This document shows positions 2,773 to 63,383 of a stretch of DNA of 64,000 bases, one piece after another. The stretch spans positions 64,001 through 128,000 of the forward strand of contig SCQK01000013.1 of the NCBI GenBank assembly GCA_004321885.1. The letters are read 5' to 3'. Positions within the stretch are counted from its first letter, which is position 1. Every line of letters begins with the position of its first letter. Origin of the DNA: Patescibacteria group bacterium (GTDB lineage: Bacteria > Patescibacteriota > Patescibacteriia > Magasanikbacterales > GWA2-37-8). The notes beneath the pieces are model-generated. The model did not search any database. It saw only the letters and a program-made list of their open reading frames with translations, and was not told the origin of the DNA. Both the position numbers and the translations under genes were made by a program.

Positions 2773-3399
2773 TTATCGCGAATAAAACTCAATGATAGTT
2801 TTGGCGTCAAAACCCGGCTCGGCAATCGTCGGCGCATTCAAAATTTTCGCGCGCAACTGGGACGGTTCCAGCCCCAGCCATCCGGGCGCCTCCAGCTTGG
2901 CCAGTTTTTCTTCCATTTTATCGTAAAGCAGGCTTTTCTTTTTGGATTCTTTAAGCGCGACCATGTCGCCGACCTTCACGCGGTAAGACGGAATATTGAC
3001 CGGACGGCCGTTTACGGACAGATGGCTGTGGCTCACGATTTGCCTGGCCGCGGCCCGGGATTTGCCCAAACCCATTCTAAACGCCACATTATCCAGGCGC
3101 GACTCCAGATAGGAAATCAAAAACTTGCCGGTGTTGCCGGTTTTCTTTGCGGCTTCGGCCACATAATTGGCAAACTGCCTTTCGCGCAGGCCGTACAATC
3201 GCTTGGCTTTTTGCTTCTCAAACAATTGTTTGCCGTAAACCGAGCGCTTGGAGTGCTTTTTGCTCGGCCCGTGCGCGCCCGGCGGATAATTGCGCTTTAC
3301 CATGGTGCATTTCGGCCCAAAACATTTTTCGCCTTTCAGCATCAGTTTAACGCCGGCTCCGCGGCACTGGGCGCATTTTGAATCTAACATTAAAACCAT
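2773..3399 (-). CDS. rpsD: 30S ribosomal protein S4
   Basis: N-terminal zinc-ribbon-like DSKCAQCRGAGVKLMLKGEKCFGPKCTMVKRNYPPGAHG aligns with Thermus-type S4 ([26 protein letters not shown]...). S4 body follows. Start Met approximate. Confidence 0.85.
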   Translation of the reverse strand: MVLMLDSKCAQCRGAGVKLMLKGEKCFGPKCTMVKRNYPPGAHGPSKKHSKRSVYGKQLFEKQKAKRLYGLRERQFANYVAEAAKKTGNTGKFLISYLESRLDNVAFRMGLGKSRAAARQIVSHSHLSVNGRPVNIPSYRVKVGDMVALKESKKKSLLYDKMEEKLAKLEAPGWLGLEPSQLRAKILNAPTIAEPGFDAKTIIEFYSR

Positions 3400-3406
3400 A
3401 AATCGT

Positions 3407-3436
3407 GTCATTCCCCCGACTAAGTCGGGGGAATCC
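3407..3436. repeat. Palindromic element, family A (GTCATTCCCCCGACTAAGTCGGGGGAATCC), intergenic between rpsK and rpsD
   Basis: Outer arms ATTCC/GGAAT enclosing the inner hairpin CCCCCGAC-TAA-GTCGGGGG. Copies at 6030-6060 and 19311-19341 lie in frame in alaS and mnmA. Confidence 0.7.
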
Positions 3437-3450
3437 AATCATGAATAAGT

Positions 3451-3924
3451 TTAAACTCTCCTTCGACCGGGCGGACGGCAGCCGTTATGCGGCATCGGTG
3501 TCACGTCGTTCACGGAAACCACGTTGAACCCGTTGATATGCAAAGCGCGAATAGCGCCCTCGCGCCCGCCGCCGATGCCCTTGACAAAAACATGCAAATC
3601 TTTCACACCAAAATCAGCCACCTTCCCGGCCACGTCTTTCACCACCATGCCGGCCGCATAGGGGGTGGCTTTCTTGGGACCCTTAAAGCCCACTTTTCCG
3701 GCCGATGACCAGCTCAAAATATCCCCGTTCGGATCGGCAATGGAAACAATGGTATTGTTATAGGAAGCCTGAATATACGCGTTGCCGTGCGCCACCTGTC
3801 TGACTGCTTTTTTCTTCTTGGATTTCACGACTTTTTTTGCGCCCGGTTTTATTTCCGCCGCCGGAACAGCCGCAGGCGCGCTATCGGCCGCTTCAATTAT
3901 TTTTGTCGCTTGTTCATCGGTCAT
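3451..3924 (-). CDS. rpsK: 30S ribosomal protein S11
   Basis: ...AHGNAYIQASYNNTIVSIADPNGDILSWSSAGKVGFKGPKKATPYAAGMVVKDVAGKVADFGVKDLHVFVKGIGGGREGAIRAL...; S11 family. Confidence 0.9.
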   Translation of the reverse strand: MTDEQATKIIEAADSAPAAVPAAEIKPGAKKVVKSKKKKAVRQVAHGNAYIQASYNNTIVSIADPNGDILSWSSAGKVGFKGPKKATPYAAGMVVKDVAGKVADFGVKDLHVFVKGIGGGREGAIRALHINGFNVVSVNDVTPMPHNGCRPPGRRRV

Positions 3925-3935
3925 ATCTCAATATA

Positions 3936-4322
3936 TCAAGTCTTTAACCCGGCCGGCTTGCGGCCGCTGCCCATGGTTTTGCGCACGTTGCCGCGCACGG
4001 TGCGGCTGTTGGTTTTGGTGCGCTGTCCGCGAACCGGCAAATGCTTCATGTGCCTGATGCCGCGATAGGCCTTAATGTCTTTCATGCGCTTGATATTGGA
4101 CATCACTTCGCGGCGCAAATCGCCTTCGGTCTTGTATTCTTTTTCCACAATCAAACGAATCTTATCTTCCTGTTCGTTGGTCAAATCCTTGACGCGGATG
4201 TCTTCGCTGATTTTGGCCTTGGCCAAGATTTTTTTCGCGGCCACGGCGCCCACGCCGTAAATATAGGGCAAAGACGCCACGATTCGTTTTTCTTTAGGTA
4301 TATTTATACCGGCGATACGCAT
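3936..4322 (-). CDS. rpsM: 30S ribosomal protein S13
   Basis: [33 protein letters not shown]...[27 protein letters not shown]; ATG at 4320-4322. The track ORF carries an N-terminal extension made of a (TAATTGG)x3 repeat. Confidence 0.9.
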
Positions 4323-4881: not shown

Positions 4882-5349
4882 TCAAGGGGCGGCTGGCAAA
4901 TTATCCCCATGATTTCCGCTGTCATTCCCGCCCGCGAGTGGAAATCCATTTGCGTACACCCAGTATTTATACAATAAAAAATTCCAGGCCACGGCCACGG
5001 CAATATTTGCCACGCGCGCCAGGCGATAATCCAGGCCGAATTTTTCGTTAAAAAACCACATCCAGCCAATGGCGATGATGTAATTCAAAAACATTACCAC
5101 CAAAAAACGGGCCGCCTGCGTGGCGGCGCATCCGCGGGCTCCAAAAGACCAGTATTTATTCAGCAAAAAAACATAAGCCACCATAAACACCTGGTTTATG
5201 GCCACGGCCGCAACCGGACGCAGACGGGCATATTCTTTGAGCAAATAAAGCGAGCCGACGTCCAAAAACAAGGCGCTAAGCCCCACCAAAAAATATTTGG
5301 CAAACTGCGCTCGGCTGGCCCACAGTTTTTTTATAATATCTTTTATCAT
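4882..5349 (-). CDS. GtrA-like family membrane protein (putative polysaccharide-synthesis flippase component)
   Basis: MIKDIIKKLWASRAQFAKYFLVGLSALFLDVGSLYLL...YKYWVY fits the GtrA/DPM pattern. ATG at 5347-5349 overlaps the alaS stop (ATGA). Confidence 0.55.
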   Translation of the reverse strand: MIKDIIKKLWASRAQFAKYFLVGLSALFLDVGSLYLLKEYARLRPVAAVAINQVFMVAYVFLLNKYWSFGARGCAATQAARFLVVMFLNYIIAIGWMWFFNEKFGLDYRLARVANIAVAVAWNFLLYKYWVYANGFPLAGGNDSGNHGDNLPAAP

Positions 5350-7202
5350 TCTAATATCGCCTTTATCCTCCGCACGCCGGCGCTCACTGCCTCTTCTTTG
5401 ATAATGCGGAATTTTCCCAGCACACCCGTGTGCTCCACGTGCGGTCCGCCGCATATTTCGCGGCTAAAACATTGCGAGTTCTCGTGGGCTTCAACTTTGG
5501 CTTGCGAGTCGCCCACGGAATAGACCTTGACTTTTTGCCCGTAACGTGCTTCAAACAATCCAATGGCCCCCAATTTTTTGGCCTGTTCCACGCTCATTTC
5601 TTCAAAAACCACCGTATAATCGCGCTTTATGGCATAGTTGACAAGTTCTTCAATTTGTGCTTTCTGATTTTCAGTCAGCTTCTCGGGATGGCTAAAATCA
5701 AAGCGCAAACGCTCGGCCGTAATATTGCTGCCGCGCTGTGTCACATGCTCGCCCAACACCTTGCGCAGGGCGGCGTGGAGCAAATGCGTGGCCGTGTGGT
5801 ATTTTATGGACATCTCGCCGGTATCAGCCAGCCCGCCCTTGAATTTTTGCTCGGCGCCGGCCCGAGAAAGCTCCTGATGCTTTTTCATTTCCTCGTTAAA
5901 TCCTTTGATATCAACACTTAATCCTTTTTCCTCCGCCAATTCTATCGTCAGTTCAATCGGGAAGCCATAACTTTGATACAGGTCAAAAGCATCTTTCGCG
6001 GAAATTATTTTTCCGCCGTCAGTCACATTGTCATTCCCCCGACTAAGTACGGGGGAATCCAGTAACTCCTCAAATTTCGCCATTCCTCGTTCAATCGTAT
6101 TCCTAAATTTACTCTCCTCTTTTGCCATTTCGTTTATCACAAACTCGCGGTTGCGTTCCACTTCCGGATAAACATCGCTAAAAATTTTGATTGTTTCCTC
6201 GGCCATGGCCGAGGAAAAATTTTCTTTTATTCCCAGCAGTCGTCCGTGGCGCACGGCGCGGCGAATCAAACGTCTCACCACATACCCCTGGTCCACGTTG
6301 CTTGGCGCTATCCCCTTGTCATCGCCCATGATCATGGTGGCGGTACGCAAATGGTCGGCGATAACGCGCATTGATTTGGTGACTTCCGCGTTTTCCACGT
6401 ATTCGCGCCCGGAAATCTCTTCAATTTTTTGTATCAAAGGCCAAAAAGTGTCCACCTGAAAAACATCGGCAAAGCCGTTTAAGGCGACCAGCGTGCGCTC
6501 CAGACCCATGCCAGTGTCCACGTTCTTTTGTTTGAGGGGCGCGTAACTACCATCAACCAGTTTATTGTACTCCATGAAAACGTCGTTCCAAATTTCCAGC
6601 CAATTGTCTTCGTCGTTTTCCGGGTTGCTCTTTTTGGGTGGAAGCTCAGACTCCCCCATCCAATAAAACATCTCCGTGTCCGGACCGCACGGCCCGGTGG
6701 CTCCGGCCGGCCCCCACCAATTATTTTCTTTCGGTAAAAAACAAATTTTGTGCTCTGGCACGCCCGCTTCTTTCCAAATTTCGGCCGATTCTTCGTCGCG
6801 CTCGGCTGTTTTGCCTCCCTTAAACACGGACACGGCCAATTTCTTCGGGTCCAGCCCCAGCCATTTTTGGTCCGTTAAAAATTCCCAACTCCACTGTATC
6901 GCTTCCTTTTTAAAATAGTCACCCAGCGACCAGTTGCCGAGCATTTCAAAAAAAGTATCGTGGCGGTTGTCCCCCACTTCGTCAATATCCTGCAAGCGCG
7001 CGCATTTTTGCGCGCTGGCCAAACGCTTGCCCTCGGGATGTTTTTCGCCCAGTAAATACGGCACCAGCGGGTGCATGCCGGCGGTGGTAAACAAAACCGT
7101 CGGATCGTTTTCCGGAACGAGCGAGGCCGACAAAATCACCTTGTGTCCTTTACTGACAAAAAAATCCAAATATTTCTGCCGCAGTTGTTTTGATATGAGC
7201 AT
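5346..7202 (-). CDS. alaS: Alanyl-tRNA synthetase, short form lacking the C-terminal C-Ala domain; contains one in-frame palindromic insert
   Basis: Class II catalytic core (FTTAGMHPLVPYLLG, FFEMLGNWSLGDYFK), editing-domain motifs HTATHLLHAALRKVLGEHVTQRGS and CGGPHVEHTG. 618 aa against about 870 typical. Insert LDSPVLSRGND is encoded by the family A element at 6030-6060. Confidence 0.85.
   Translation of the reverse strand: MLISKQLRQKYLDFFVSKGHKVILSASLVPENDPTVLFTTAGMHPLVPYLLGEKHPEGKRLASAQKCARLQDIDEVGDNRHDTFFEMLGNWSLGDYFKKEAIQWSWEFLTDQKWLGLDPKKLAVSVFKGGKTAERDEESAEIWKEAGVPEHKICFLPKENNWWGPAGATGPCGPDTEMFYWMGESELPPKKSNPENDEDNWLEIWNDVFMEYNKLVDGSYAPLKQKNVDTGMGLERTLVALNGFADVFQVDTFWPLIQKIEEISGREYVENAEVTKSMRVIADHLRTATMIMGDDKGIAPSNVDQGYVVRRLIRRAVRHGRLLGIKENFSSAMAEETIKIFSDVYPEVERNREFVINEMAKEESKFRNTIERGMAKFEELLDSPVLSRGNDNVTDGGKIISAKDAFDLYQSYGFPIELTIELAEEKGLSVDIKGFNEEMKKHQELSRAGAEQKFKGGLADTGEMSIKYHTATHLLHAALRKVLGEHVTQRGSNITAERLRFDFSHPEKLTENQKAQIEELVNYAIKRDYTVVFEEMSVEQAKKLGAIGLFEARYGQKVKVYSVGDSQAKVEAHENSQCFSREICGGPHVEHTGVLGKFRIIKEEAVSAGVRRIKAILE
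6030..6060. repeat. Palindromic element, family A, in frame within alaS
   Basis: gtcattcccccgactaagtacgggggaatcc; the reading frame continues through it. Confidence 0.7.
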
Positions 7203-61451: not shown

Positions 61452-61489
61452 ACAAAAAATCCCCGACTTAGCCGGGAATTTTTTACTTG
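61452..61489 (-). terminator. Hairpin AAATCCCCGACTTAGCCGGGAATTT with flanking A/T runs, downstream of tRNA-Trp
   Basis: Palindrome family E variant; T-run on the minus strand. Confidence 0.45.
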
Positions 61490-61560
61490 CAGGGGCTGAG
61501 GGAATCGGACCCCCAACTTCTCTTTTGGAGAGAGGTGTTATACCACTTAACTAAGCCCCC
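61490..61560 (-). tRNA. tRNA-Trp (anticodon CCA)
   Basis: RC: GGGGGCT-TA-GTTA-AGTGGTAT-AAC-A-CCTCT-CTCCAAA-AGAGA-AGTT-GGGGG-TCCGATT-CCCTC-AGCCCCT-G; anticodon loop CUCCAAA. Confidence 0.75.
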
Positions 61561-61577: not shown

Positions 61578-61733
61578 TTATTTCGTCTCTTTGTGCATGG
61601 TATGTTTTTTGCAATGCCGGCAGAATTTTTTCATCTCCAAGCGGTTTTTGAGAGTTTTTTTGTTGCGGGTGCTGAAATAATTCGCGCGCTTGCATTGCGA
61701 GCATTCCAACTTGGCCAAATTATCTTGAGACAT
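61578..61733 (-). CDS. rpmG: 50S ribosomal protein L33
   Basis: [51 protein letters not shown] (51 aa) fits C-x2-C…NY-x2-T-x-NK…L-x2-KK-x-C-x2-C-x-KHT-x-H-KETK; below the ORF-track cut-off. Confidence 0.8.
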
Positions 61734-61825: not shown

Positions 61826-62046
61826 AAAAGTAGACGAACCTTTTATTTCATACTGTATGGGGACGCGAAAGTGCGGGCGCGCCTAGGCTAACCGAGGCGC
61901 CTCTTTACAAGGAACCGCTGGCTGAAAAACAACCGGTTCGGGGCAAGAGTCCCGAAACAAGCGCTTGGCGCACGGATTGTTTTTCAACCCCAGGTCGGCT
62001 GGGTCTGCCCGCAGTGTAGAGTTAAAAACAGTCCCGACTTAGTCGG
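61826..62046 (+). ncRNA. Candidate small RNA (about 220 nt, GC-rich) between a consensus promoter and a bidirectional terminator
   Basis: Hairpins GGCGCGCC…GGCGCC, GGAACCG…CGGUUC, GGGG…CCCC; ends at ACAGUCCCGACUUAGUCGGGACUGU plus UUUU (62018-62046). Only a 21-codon ORF is present. Class undetermined; the strand call rests on the promoter. Confidence 0.3.
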
Positions 62047-62051
62047 GACTG

Positions 62052-62323
62052 TTTTGGCGCGAGCCGATGAGCGGATTTGAACCGCTGACCACCTCCTTCG
62101 CTTATACTTTATATTGCTATAAAGACTAGACTGTATCTTTGGCTTATCCTTTACCGGACTTAGCCACCCTTGTCAGTCGTTCGCCCGCGATTAGCGGGAC
62201 GGTCTTGTCCCAATTTATTTAGGGATATTAACCGTTATTCGGGATTCACCACGATGTTTCCATCGTGATGGGCGAGGCTTGCGGCTCACCATGGAGGTGC
62301 TCTACCAACTGAGCTACATCGGC
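62052..62323 (-). tRNA. tRNA-Thr (anticodon GGT) interrupted by a 199-nt group I intron in the anticodon loop
   Basis: 5' exon GCCGATG-TA-GCTC-AGTTGGTA-GAGC-A-CCTCC-ATGGT (62288-62323). 3' exon AA-GGAGG-TGGTC-AGCGG-TTCAAAT-CCGCT-CATCGGC-T (62052-62088). Joined anticodon loop AUGGUAA gives GGU. Position equals E. coli thrT in thrU-tyrU-glyT-thrT. Confidence 0.6.
62089..62287 (-). ncRNA. Group I intron (199 nt) in tRNA-Thr(GGU), inserted after U36
   Basis: 5' exon ends in U that can pair with a G in the intron (P1); the intron ends in G. GNRA-capped hairpins (GAGCC-GCAA-GCCUC; CACGAUGG-AAA-CAUCGUG); core-like elements AAUUGGGACAAG (P-like), UAAUCGCGGGCG (Q-like), ACGACUGACA (R-like), AAGAUACAGUCUAGUC (S-like, compare AAGAUAUAGUCC) in canonical order. 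Confidence 0.5.
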
Positions 62324-62328
62324 ATTTT

Positions 62329-62988
62329 CTAATTTTTTTTATTTTCCAAAATCCTCATTAATTCATCTCTCATTTTTTTATTATGGTAATAAACTGTTAA
62401 AACTCCATGTCTACTTTTTTCGCGATAAGTACCTTTTCTAACAGACATTGTTATCGTGCTTTTGTAAAATTGATTTTTATTTACCTTTATTTGCCCCTTC
62501 CAAAACCTTAGCGCTTCAGTCACTGAAATGTCATTGAATAACTGAAGGCTAAACTTAAGGTCTTTTCTTCTAATGGAAAAAAATTTAACTAAAAAGTCAA
62601 TAAATTTCTTGACCAATCTTGGGTCAGTATTTCCCAACCTAACTGTGCATTTATCCGCTTTTGTTCCCTCCCCCCAGTATAACCCAAGTCCAAAACCATA
62701 TAAAATTCCCTCTTTTAATGTATGTGGATACTTTATGACAAATGGATCACCGTTTGGGTTATTTTTTTTGTAAATAGCTTCACTGATAGATCTACACGTA
62801 ATCGAATATTTTTCCATCCAATAACGTATTTTATTTACTGAACATTCGAAAATATTGGCAATTTCTTGTGCCGACTTTCCCTGATTTTGATATAATTTTT
62901 GCAAAACACCTTTGCTTATCATATCACAAATTATATCATAGCCGACTGAATAGTACAAGTAACCCCAAGTAGATAATATGGTTGTCAA
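62329..62988 (-). CDS. HTH plus LAGLIDADG-like protein (possible free-standing homing endonuclease) lying between the two intron-containing tRNA genes, in the position of glyT
   Basis: N-terminal HTH (QGKSAQEIANIFECSVNKIRYWMEKY); central ILYGFGLGLYWGEGTK resembles a single LAGLIDADG motif (LxGFxDGDG); 219 aa. Confidence 0.4.
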   Translation of the reverse strand: MTTILSTWGYLYYSVGYDIICDMISKGVLQKLYQNQGKSAQEIANIFECSVNKIRYWMEKYSITCRSISEAIYKKNNPNGDPFVIKYPHTLKEGILYGFGLGLYWGEGTKADKCTVRLGNTDPRLVKKFIDFLVKFFSIRRKDLKFSLQLFNDISVTEALRFWKGQIKVNKNQFYKSTITMSVRKGTYREKSRHGVLTVYYHNKKMRDELMRILENKKN

Positions 62989-62997
62989 TGAACCTTG

Positions 62998-63292
62998 TGG
63001 GTGGAGTAGGATTCGAACCTACGAAGGCAGAGCCAGCAGATTTCATTTATCCAAAAGTTTCCTTCTAGCATGGACTATATCTTTATCCTATCCGCCAATC
63101 TGGCCGATAGGATACTCTGGTATCTAGTCTCTACGGCGCCCCCGACTTTGCCGGGGTTCCCACGGTATTAGCATGCCCGCCAGTTGGCGGATTTAGCTTT
63201 CACCGTTATCCCAGAGAGTTCATCCTAAAGTTACCTTTAGGAGCTGCGTTTCAACACAGTCTGCTCCAGTTGACCACTTTGGTATCCACCCA
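62998..63292 (-). tRNA. tRNA-Tyr (anticodon GTA) interrupted by a 213-nt group I intron in the anticodon loop
   Basis: 5' exon GGGTGGA-TA-CCAA-AGTGGTCAA-CTGG-A-GCAGA-CTGT (63257-63292), closely matching E. coli tRNA-Tyr (…CCAAAGGGAGCAGACUGUAAAUCUGC…). 3' exon AAA-TCTGC-TGGCTCTGCCTTC (long variable arm)-GTAGG-TTCGAAT-CCTAC-TCCACCC-A (62998-63043). Joined loop CUGUAAA. Confidence 0.65.
63044..63256 (-). ncRNA. Group I intron (213 nt) in tRNA-Tyr(GUA), inserted between anticodon positions 35 and 36
   Basis: Exon CUGU pairs with intron GCAG (U·G at the splice site). The intron ends …AAAUG. Contains CGUAGAGACUAGAUA (R element, AGAGACUA) and AAAGAUAUAGUCCAUG (exact S element AAGAUAUAGUCC), plus AAAUCCGCCAACUGGCGGGC (P/Q-like). 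Confidence 0.6.
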
Positions 63293-63311
63293 TCTTCTTA
63301 AATTTTCTTGA

Positions 63312-63383
63312 GCCGCCTCAGGGATTCGGACCCTGGACCTACGGTTTACAAAACCGTTGCTCTACCGCTGAGCTAAGGCGGCA
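63312..63383 (-). tRNA. tRNA-Thr (anticodon TGT)
   Basis: RC: GCCGCCT-TA-GCTC-AGCGGTA-GAGC-A-ACGGT-TTTGTAA-ACCGT-AGGTC-CAGGG-TCCGAAT-CCCTG-AGGCGGC-T; equivalent of E. coli thrU. Confidence 0.8.

Follow-up and report, generated by a model that had tools for sequence, protein, structure and literature searches.

A free-standing candidate homing endonuclease gene linked to the intron-bearing tRNA-Thr(GGU) gene of Patescibacteria

A tRNA cluster of a Patescibacteria group bacterium of the order Magasanikbacterales (assembly GCA_004321885.1) carries two tRNA genes that are interrupted in the anticodon loop by small group I introns and, between them, an open reading frame (ORF) whose product is probably a free-standing homing endonuclease. 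The cluster is located on the minus strand near the end of the stretch analysed here, referred to as the window, which comprises 64,000 nucleotides (nt) of contig SCQK01000013.1 (positions 64,001 to 128,000). Its genes are arranged in the order tRNA-Thr(UGU), split tRNA-Tyr(GUA), ORF, split tRNA-Thr(GGU), a hairpin, rpmG and tRNA-Trp (Table 1). The explanation that accounts best for the locus as a whole, and which is considered quite likely, is that two ORF-less tRNA introns stand beside a free-standing gene for a homing endonuclease directed at tRNA-Thr(GGU) and that this system spreads by collaborative homing. Comparison with related loci makes it probable that the ORF itself is this endonuclease and the partner of the Thr intron. 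The new part is the ORF linked to tRNA-Thr(GGU) and not the introns themselves.

The linkage between ORF, tRNA gene and intron was followed in two samples. The first consisted of 80 GTDB species, which were collected via the gene for ribosomal protein L33 and chosen regardless of the ORF; the second consisted of 80 metagenome loci collected via the ORF, 72 of which have enough downstream DNA. In all 72 testable ORF-anchored loci, the ORF ends -6 to 148 nt from a tRNA-Thr(GGU) gene, and the wider gene order varies, e.g., Thr-Tyr-ORF-Thr-L33-Trp or Met-Asp-ORF-Thr(GGU)-Thr(CGU). The tRNA-Thr(GGU) gene next to the ORF is interrupted in 46 of these loci and plain in 26. Among the loci of the L33 sample that lack the ORF and have enough upstream DNA (n = 37), 36 possess an uninterrupted tRNA-Thr(GGU) gene and one an interrupted gene; the intron rate is thus 64% next to the ORF versus 3% without it (Fisher p = 9e-11). 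Two additional loci of the L33 sample carry the ORF, both with an interrupted gene, and with 2 of about 40 close relatives the distribution of the ORF is patchy. The arrangement of the window, a free-standing ORF beside an ORF-less intron, recurs in 46 other metagenome loci. At the lone interrupted locus without the ORF (L084), its place is taken by a PD-(D/E)XK endonuclease of 130 amino acids belonging to family PF11645 (E 1.2e-28); here, a second, unrelated nuclease family stands free beside an intron-bearing tRNA-Thr(GGU) gene.

The preliminary description of this DNA had the ORF stand where glyT would be; comparison anchors it to the 5' end of tRNA-Thr(GGU), whichever genes are its neighbours. 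Neither a replacement of glyT by the ORF nor a position of the ORF within a third split tRNA gene was accepted, in view of the flanking gaps, which measure just 73 nt (tRNA-Tyr to the ATG) and 5 nt (stop codon to tRNA-Thr(GGU)). The first impression that the ORF is invariably paired with an intron was corrected by the intron-less loci of the metagenome sample, and a tie to the Tyr intron was discarded, as tRNA-Tyr is uninterrupted at most ORF-bearing loci. A separate observation concerns eight of the 80 ORF-anchored contigs (L093, L094, L102, L111, L120, L124, L130 and L163), which stop 59-274 nt past the ORF, inside or just before the expected tRNA-Thr(GGU) gene or its intron. These contig ends may be assembly breaks resulting from strain variation in the presence of the intron.

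Further evidence was obtained from the anticodon stem. Mature tRNA-Thr(GGU) sequences of distinct genes were compared in three classes defined by the presence of ORF and intron. Genes with neither ORF nor intron retain the loop-proximal stem TCC/GGA in 29 of 30 cases and genes with both, in the spliced sequence, in 41 of 46, but genes that have the ORF without the intron in only 3 of 24 (p = 2.5e-10 and 8e-11 for the differences between classes, with relatedness uncontrolled). The last class contains 19 different stems, all of which are base-paired (e.g., CGATC/GATCG, TTCGC/GCGAA and GCACT/AGTGC), and the ORF is intact with its conserved motif in both ORF-bearing classes. Loci with and without the intron are interleaved in the ORF tree; therefore, the changes arose repeatedly. 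Since a change in the anticodon loop means loss of function, compensated rewriting of the stem is the only way to alter the site without an intron. In the simplest reading of these sequences, the protein recognizes the near-palindromic arm ..CTCC-ATGGTAA-GGAG.. as DNA, and a genome bearing the ORF would survive either through an intron that splits the site at 36/37 or through a stem that has diverged so far that the protein no longer recognizes it. An enzyme with one LAGLIDADG domain that works as a homodimer would be well matched to a near-palindromic site in which the insertion lies close to the middle.

The most probable start codon of the ORF is the ATG at 62922, which gives a protein of 197 amino acids that is identical to the NCBI entry 'hypothetical protein EPN28_03575 [Patescibacteria group bacterium]'; the 219 amino acids given in the preliminary description correspond to a reading that begins at TTG. 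More than 1100 relatives of about 195-200 amino acids, almost all of them without a Pfam domain, are spread over many Patescibacteria lineages. In an alignment of 43 relatives, the motif GLGLYWGEGTK and further polar residues are invariant; G84, E85 and G86 are found in 43/43 sequences, and the motif is located at the end of helix 69-85. The motif is also conserved in 70 of 75 ORFs derived from the loci. For moderately diverged pairs, the ratio of non-synonymous to synonymous substitution rates (dN/dS) is 0.06-0.14, with dS being saturated. An AlphaFold model with a predicted local distance difference test (pLDDT) score of 88 consists of a helical helix-turn-helix (HTH) domain followed by an alpha-beta-beta-alpha-beta-beta-alpha domain, which agrees with the HTH and the LAGLIDADG-like motif noticed earlier: an N-terminal HTH and a LAGLIDADG-type domain are predicted. 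The model PF14528 (LAGLIDADG_3) matches weakly and below its cut-off in 14 of the 43 relatives (best E 0.0055). Searches of the window ORF against Pfam and NCBIfam returned weak HTH or transposase-HTH matches and nothing else, and phmmer and hmmsearch against PDB sequences revealed no LAGLIDADG match for the ORF family. Likewise, no significant match was obtained when the predicted structure was compared with the PDB using Foldseek or when the family profile was compared with I-CreI using hhalign. The ORF is regarded as encoding a functional protein composed of an HTH and one LAGLIDADG-type domain, the assignment of the predicted fold being of moderate confidence.

The two split tRNA genes were delimited by matching of their exons. 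In tRNA-Tyr, the 5' exon ends with CUGU, the insert ends with G and the 3' exon starts with AAAUC, so that the joint lies between nucleotides 35 and 36; in tRNA-Thr, AUGGU and AAGG flank an insert that likewise ends with G, and the joint lies between nucleotides 36 and 37. Each gene allows a single boundary of the U(-1)/G(omega) type. The joined exons are called by ARAGORN as tRNA-Tyr(gta) with 83 nt and tRNA-Thr(ggt) with 74 nt. The preliminary description had recognized the split halves, the Tyr break between 35 and 36, the omega-G at the end of each intron and the pairing of the terminal U of each 5' exon with a guide G, which is a U.G wobble in both introns; solely its insert lengths of 213 and 199 nt had to be replaced by 212 nt for Tyr and 189 nt for Thr. 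Its view that both inserts are group I introns of the anticodon loop is supported by the score of the Tyr insert in the Rfam model RF00028 and by the covariation of the Thr insert.

The comparison with RF00028, which had been proposed for both inserts, gave 61.7 bits (E 1e-14) for the Tyr insert over the full model 1-253, at a gathering cut-off of 50, and its minimum free energy (MFE) of folding has a z-score of -6.3. Both elements named before, R (AGAGACUA) and S (AAGAUAUAGUCC), are present. The whole window intron can be aligned with 12 homologous tRNA-Tyr introns of other assemblies, and compensatory changes, located in P2, P3, P5, P6, P8 and P9, occur in 26 of 56 pairs predicted by a structure that is in part derived from this alignment. 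When RF00028 was applied to four of the homologues, three reached 47-56 bits. RNAalifold paired ACUGU of the 5' exon with AUAGU of J8/7, thereby replacing P7; this pairing is regarded as an artefact of two competing complementarities. As judged from these comparisons, the Tyr insert can be classified as a group I intron with high confidence.

The Thr insert reaches 22.7-26.9 bits with the same model and stays under the cut-off, the aligned part being J8/7-P7'-P9 and parts of P8; its folding z-score is -5.6. An alignment was built from 50 distinct homologues of 178-240 nt, all of which share the insertion site 36/37, U(-1) and G(omega). The structure, which was obtained with RNAalifold and complemented by a hand-added P3 pseudoknot, was partly derived from the scored alignment, which favours it. 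It consists of 47 pairs in 10 helices, covers P1-P9 including the P3/P7 pseudoknot and is paired in 97.3% of cells compared to 33-49% in slid controls, in which the 3' partners were moved by 1-3 columns. In 31 of the 47 pairs, both sides have changed, and 0 of 500 shuffles reach the observed values; the compensatory counts are thus large despite the partial origin of the structure from its own alignment. P4 and P7 (GACUG/CAGUC) are invariant and therefore provide no covariation information. The U.G wobble at the 5' splice site is found in 50/50 introns. For P1, covariation favours pairing of the exon GGU with the intron GCC through U(-1)-G, extended by the covarying intron pairing GAG/CUC, over the AUGGU/GCCCAU pairing of the preliminary description. 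The Thr insert is therefore assigned to the group I introns by structure rather than by its Rfam score, and this comparative assignment is likewise held with high confidence.

Two side observations were made on the Thr introns. A triplet in the P1 loop (CGC, CAC, CAT or CGT) complements the last three nucleotides of the intron including omega-G (GCG, GTG, ATG or ACG); in the window, these are positions 62281-62283 (intron nt 5-7) and 62099-62101 (the final three intron nt), which correspond to columns 13-15/292-294 of alignment A2. The triplet is paired in 96% of 100 cells versus 7-45% in slid controls, and 13 cells have changed on both sides. This contact may position the 3' splice site, and the complementarity causes ARAGORN to shift the boundary by 2 nt. 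Moreover, the introns of L168 (808-985), L189, L161 and L084 are as short as 178-181 nt with P1-P9 all kept, and go below the minimum of 184 nt reported in a 2026 survey of 333 bacterial tRNA introns. Thr-type introns (178-240 nt) belong to the shortest known class of sizes for group I ribozymes.

Neither intron class is new, and the window contributes a further genome to each. Nakagawa et al. 2026 (PMC13011429) listed tRNA-Tyr(GUA) introns at 35/36 and three 'divergent' tRNA-Thr(GGU) introns at 36/37 from complete Patescibacteria genomes in their Table 1 and reported that the Thr introns escape RF00028 and are labelled as Arg(GCG) 34/35 by ARAGORN. The preliminary description had considered Tyr and Thr to be unusual hosts, which is out of date because both classes are published. 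With Williams 2020 (bioRxiv 10.1101/2020.01.27.920355), the settings recorded for tRNA introns in bacteria grew from 4 to 21. Self-splicing in vitro was demonstrated for related Patescibacteria Asn and Asp introns at 35/36, not for Tyr or Thr (PMC13011429). In the published subgroup classification, no Patescibacteria tRNA intron belongs to IC, the subgroup whose IC3 division holds the Azoarcus and tRNA-Leu types, and nearly all belong to IA, and the Thr introns are placed with IA. The window introns resemble those of both studies in phylum, host tRNAs, insertion positions, detection behaviour and approximate size; however, the window genome is a draft metagenome-assembled genome outside the complete-genome set of PMC13011429, it holds both intron types side by side in one cluster, and the adjoining free-standing ORF is unmentioned there. 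The 2026 survey sought endonuclease genes solely inside introns of more than 500 base pairs (bp) and concluded that mobility is limited (PMC13011429). A literature search covering sources other than Castelle et al. 2018 found no mention of these tRNA-adjoining ORFs.

The split genes easily escape annotation. With default settings, ARAGORN found the uninterrupted tRNAs of the window alone and missed both split genes, and a gathering-mode Rfam scan of the 64-kilobase (kb) window also missed both split genes and their introns. For the Tyr intron, the reason is that the speed filters drop a match above the cut-off; a permissive-filter scan of the whole window recovers it (63051-63263) with the same match as the local scan. 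Annotation of whole genomes in gathering mode would lose the Tyr intron likewise. ARAGORN miscalls the split Thr(GGU) genes as Arg(GCG) 34/35, as in Table 1 of PMC13011429, and annotation pipelines mislabel Thr(GGU) as Arg, His or Pro and Tyr as Ser. Missed and mislabelled split tRNA genes affect the tRNA inventories for Patescibacteria.

The ORF has paralogues beside other tRNA genes. In the window, the Tyr intron is without an ORF of its own, as the tRNA-Thr(UGU) gene ends 18 nt upstream. At other loci, introns of this lineage follow a Tyr-type ORF of about 200 amino acids with 28% identity to the window ORF, an HTH and the motif LYYGEGAK; in 11 of 11 loci examined, 5-15 nt separate the end of this ORF from the interrupted tRNA-Tyr gene downstream of it, and the ORF has at least 595 relatives. 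Two loci mirror the window: L181 (2116-2673) and L189 (2109-2746) carry a Tyr-type ORF, an interrupted tRNA-Tyr and an interrupted tRNA-Thr(GGU), and no Thr-type ORF. Their layout indicates that one endonuclease gene is seemingly enough for two adjoining introns; the second intron of such a pair may be carried along by co-conversion, or its own gene may have been lost. Further paralogues, with 26-31% identity, lie directly upstream of an uninterrupted tRNA-Thr(UGU) gene at 1759-1834 (L133:1128-1757, motif MLYWGEGNK) and directly upstream of uninterrupted tRNA-Trp genes (L121:3414-4082 with LLYQCEGGK and L034:4203-5000 with LLYWCEGEK). This pattern suggests a superfamily of ORFs with one subfamily per tRNA gene. 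Distant relatives (28-35% identity, HTH and GLYWGEG motif) were also found on large IMG/VR viral contigs of 100-497 kb (L171-L177), always inside or beside tRNA arrays and, in L176, directly after tRNA-Thr(GGU).

According to the proposed mechanism, both introns would fold into the P1-P9 group I core after transcription, an external guanosine would attack after the U of the P1 U.G wobble, and the freed 5' exon would then attack after the terminal G, thereby yielding mature tRNA-Tyr and tRNA-Thr. The ORF product would be a LAGLIDADG-type homing endonuclease with one such domain and an N-terminal HTH, which probably acts as a homodimer and whose proposed target is the near-palindromic anticodon stem-loop DNA of tRNA-Thr(GGU), ..TCC-ATGGTAA-GGA... 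The host's own copy would be protected by the intron, which splits the target, and in ORF-bearing relatives without an intron the compensatory rewriting of the stem would give equal protection. On an encounter with DNA of a relative without the ORF, both ORF and intron would be copied through cleavage and recombinational repair ('collaborative' or trans homing). The Tyr intron of the window has probably lost its own ORF or travels with the neighbouring ORF by co-conversion.

Several points weigh against this mechanism. The window protein has no match to the Pfam LAGLIDADG families PF00961, PF03161 and PF14528, and WhiA, a non-cutting regulator with LAGLIDADG and HTH domains, scores as high as true endonucleases. 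The two samples were drawn differently, one via L33 in GTDB and the other via the ORF in metagenomes, and the tests ignore relatedness. As 26 of 72 ORF-bearing loci are without an intron, the intron is not obligatory for the ORF, and in L181 and L189 an interrupted tRNA-Thr(GGU) gene occurs without a Thr-type ORF, the Tyr-type ORF lying about 300-400 nt upstream. No uninterrupted copy of tRNA-Tyr(GUA) or tRNA-Thr(GGU) was found within the 64-kb window, to which this search was confined. Finally, the case for self-splicing of the introns, cleavage of DNA, the precise target and mobility is a comparative one, built from sequences.

The same observations bear on other explanations of the locus. 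LAGLIDADG maturases are an established class, and the ORF product might be such a protein, which helps the Thr intron to fold or splice instead of cutting DNA. The Thr intron diverges so much that it falls below the RF00028 cut-off and almost never occurs without an adjoining ORF, as would be expected for an intron that depends on a helper, and splicing co-factors have been reviewed (PMC3984707). However, the 26 intron-less loci retain an intact ORF and motif, including its invariant acidic residue, and a maturase would neither predict the rewritten anticodon stems in exactly these loci nor the unrelated PD-(D/E)XK endonuclease in the position of the ORF at L084; a role as maturase alone is therefore considered unlikely. 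These data are compatible with a protein that serves both as endonuclease and as maturase.

Alternatively, the ORF could encode a domesticated, non-cutting regulator of the tRNA/rpmG cluster that resembles WhiA, and its association with the intron would then be a phylogenetic coincidence. WhiA is a vertically inherited transcription factor with two degenerate LAGLIDADG domains, which lack the catalytic acids, and a C-terminal HTH. The window ORF, in contrast, has one domain with an invariant Glu at the catalytic position, an N-terminal HTH and a patchy distribution, being found in few close L33-sampled relatives and yet across many Patescibacteria lineages. It tracks tRNA-Thr(GGU) through differing gene orders, stem rewriting is found solely in ORF-bearing, intron-less genes, and paralogues by other tRNA genes as well as relatives in viral tRNA arrays are typical of mobile nuclease genes. 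A regulator is thus improbable, if marginally less so than a maturase. It is very improbable that the inserts are non-functional, i.e., that the genes are disrupted pseudogenes or assembly chimeras and working tRNA copies exist elsewhere. Such a reading would be in line with the failure of standard tRNA finders and of the whole-window Rfam gathering scan to report either gene and with the restriction of the search for further copies to 64 kb; however, inserts at the same sites are found in dozens of independent assemblies, where exons and U(-1)/G(omega) are conserved and compensatory changes occur all along the inserts, the exons are still canonical tRNAs, and intron-bearing Tyr(GUA) 35/36 and Thr(GGU) 36/37 genes are listed for complete genomes (PMC13011429).

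A free-standing homing endonuclease thus remains the preferred reading of the ORF, and several known systems can be compared with it. Phage T4 SegB is a free-standing GIY-YIG homing endonuclease encoded in the T4 tRNA cluster and is not paired with an intron. The ORF resembles it as a free-standing gene among tRNA genes, with relatives in IMG/VR tRNA arrays; unlike the window ORF, SegB is a phage-derived GIY-YIG enzyme without an intron partner. SegB is the subject of PMC13096335. Collaborative homing is an established pathway for phage protein-coding genes (Hausner, Hafez and Edgell 2014, PMC3984707), examples of trans homing being T4 mobE with the nrdB intron (PMC2790892) and F-CphI of cyanophage S-PM2 with the psbA intron (PMC6083498). 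As in these systems, the endonuclease gene would lie outside but beside an ORF-less intron and, if the proposal holds, the insertion site would be the cleavage target and the intron would protect the host allele. The differences are that a cellular bacterium and a tRNA gene are involved here, that the protein has an HTH and a predicted LAGLIDADG domain instead of an HNH or Endo VII domain, and that there are natural alleles which have the endonuclease gene, no intron and compensated changes of the target; cleavage is only proposed here.

I-Ssp6803I is a PD-(D/E)XK enzyme encoded in the cyanobacterial tRNA-fMet intron, and its specificity is for the anticodon region of that gene (Bonocora and Shub 2001, cited in PMC3984707). 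Its Pfam family, PF11645, is that of the L084 protein and is found inside cyanobacterial tRNA-fMet introns. Both systems would be aimed at the anticodon arm of an intron-bearing tRNA gene; however, I-Ssp6803I is intron-encoded, whereas the ORFs described here are located outside the intron and upstream of the tRNA, and the window ORF belongs to a different fold family. From the same phylum come the single-domain LAGLIDADG endonucleases of rRNA introns of the Candidate Phyla Radiation, for one of which, I-ShaI, a homodimer was shown (Tsurumaki et al. 2024, PMC11270868). The single predicted LAGLIDADG domain is also shared. In contrast to the window protein, enzymes of this type are intron-encoded, reside in rRNA genes and are recognized by LAGLIDADG profiles; the window protein has an additional N-terminal HTH, is free-standing and is missed by the Pfam LAGLIDADG models.

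Table 1. Features of the tRNA cluster in the window and of the nuclease gene at locus L084 (window coordinates unless marked L084)
Feature	Position	Strand	Basis or remark
tRNA-Thr(UGU), uninterrupted, opens the cluster	63310-63382	-	ARAGORN; RF00005 71.2 bits
tRNA-Tyr(GUA), split, whole gene	62996-63291	-	exact exon matching
tRNA-Tyr(GUA) 5' exon, last nt U35, end ..GCAGACUGU	63256-63291	-	exact exon matching; ARAGORN on joined exons
tRNA-Tyr group I intron, 35/36, 212 nt (assignment from comparison)	63044-63255	-	RF00028, MFE z, homologues
Tyr intron P1 guide GCAG	63244-63247	-	pairs with exon CUGU, U.G wobble
Tyr intron P2	63222-63243	-	
Tyr intron P3	63211-63216 with 63115-63120	-	
Tyr intron P4-P5	63163-63205	-	
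Tyr intron P6	63135-63161	-	
Tyr intron J6/7+P7	63121-63134	-	contains AGAGACUA
Tyr intron P8	63085-63113	-	
Tyr intron J8/7+P7'	63072-63084	-	contains AAGAUAUAGUCC
Tyr intron P9	63051-63068	-	
Tyr intron omega-G	63044	-	
tRNA-Tyr(GUA) 3' exon, start AAAUCUGC, long variable arm	62996-63043	-	exact exon matching
ORF, 197 amino acids, ATG 62922, TAG stop 62329-62331	62329-62922	-	proposed free-standing homing endonuclease
tRNA-Thr(GGU), split, whole gene	62061-62323	-	exact exon matching
tRNA-Thr(GGU) 5' exon, last nt U36, end ..CCUCCAUGGU	62288-62323	-	exact exon matching; ARAGORN on joined exons
tRNA-Thr(GGU) divergent group I intron, 36/37, 189 nt (assignment from comparison)	62099-62287	-	50 homologues, MFE z
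Thr intron P1	62285-62290 with guide 62271-62276	-	
Thr intron P2	62247-62270	-	
Thr intron P3	62240-62244 with 62166-62170	-	
Thr intron P4	62230-62235 with 62199-62204	-	
Thr intron P5	62208-62225	-	
Thr intron P6	62184-62198	-	
Thr intron J6/7+P7	62171-62183	-	
Thr intron P8	62141-62165	-	
Thr intron J8/7+P7'	62126-62140	-	
Thr intron P9	62107-62125	-	
Thr intron omega-G	62099	-	
tRNA-Thr(GGU) 3' exon, start AAGGAGG...	62061-62098	-	exact exon matching
Perfect 11-bp hairpin ACAGUCCCGAC/GUCGGGACUGU, then U run; terminator-like end of the cluster	62024-62052	-	sequence reading
rpmG (ribosomal protein L33), conserved downstream neighbour, comparison anchor	61578-61733	-	
tRNA-Trp(CCA), uninterrupted	61489-61560	-	ARAGORN; Rfam
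L084: PF11645 endonuclease	3303-3695 (L084)	+	directly upstream of interrupted tRNA-Thr(GGU) 3700-3954

Within the cluster, a TATAAT hexamer is located at 62930-62935 on the minus strand, near the ATG of the ORF. The hairpin that follows tRNA-Thr(GGU) was not called by a scan for consensus terminators, as it narrowly fails the T-run rule of the scan. On the Magasanikbacteria-like contig L003, a gene for a large serine recombinase (Resolvase/Recombinase/Zn_ribbon_recom; 5319-6806, minus strand) lies just 3' of the tRNA-Trp gene that ends the cluster; no serine recombinase gene is listed at that place for the near-identical L004. The recombinase gene may mark an element integrated at the tRNA.

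The ORF bears on the question of how tRNA introns spread, since an endonuclease-like gene is found just outside the intron and is tightly linked to the target across hundreds of assemblies, whereas the introns of these ultra-small bacteria with reduced genomes have been viewed in print as devoid of endonuclease genes and hence as hardly mobile. We lean towards the view that an unannotated superfamily of tRNA-dedicated HTH-LAGLIDADG homing endonucleases, present in Patescibacteria and on some IMG/VR contigs, cuts the near-palindromic DNA of anticodon arms and drives the spread of ORF-less introns by collaborative homing and that introns or, alternatively, rewritten stems serve as immunity; the superfamily counts more than 1100 members for Thr(GGU), at least 595 for Tyr(GUA) and further paralogues by Thr(UGU) and Trp. 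As the proteins are of small size, numerous and, by prediction, homodimeric, the model lends itself to direct bench tests. If it is true, the published inference of little mobility for these introns would be overturned, and the loci would provide a natural series of intermediates on a proposed path to mobile introns. As regards the way in which mobile introns originate, the loci would place two natural routes of self-protection next to each other, namely an intron within the target and a compensated stem.

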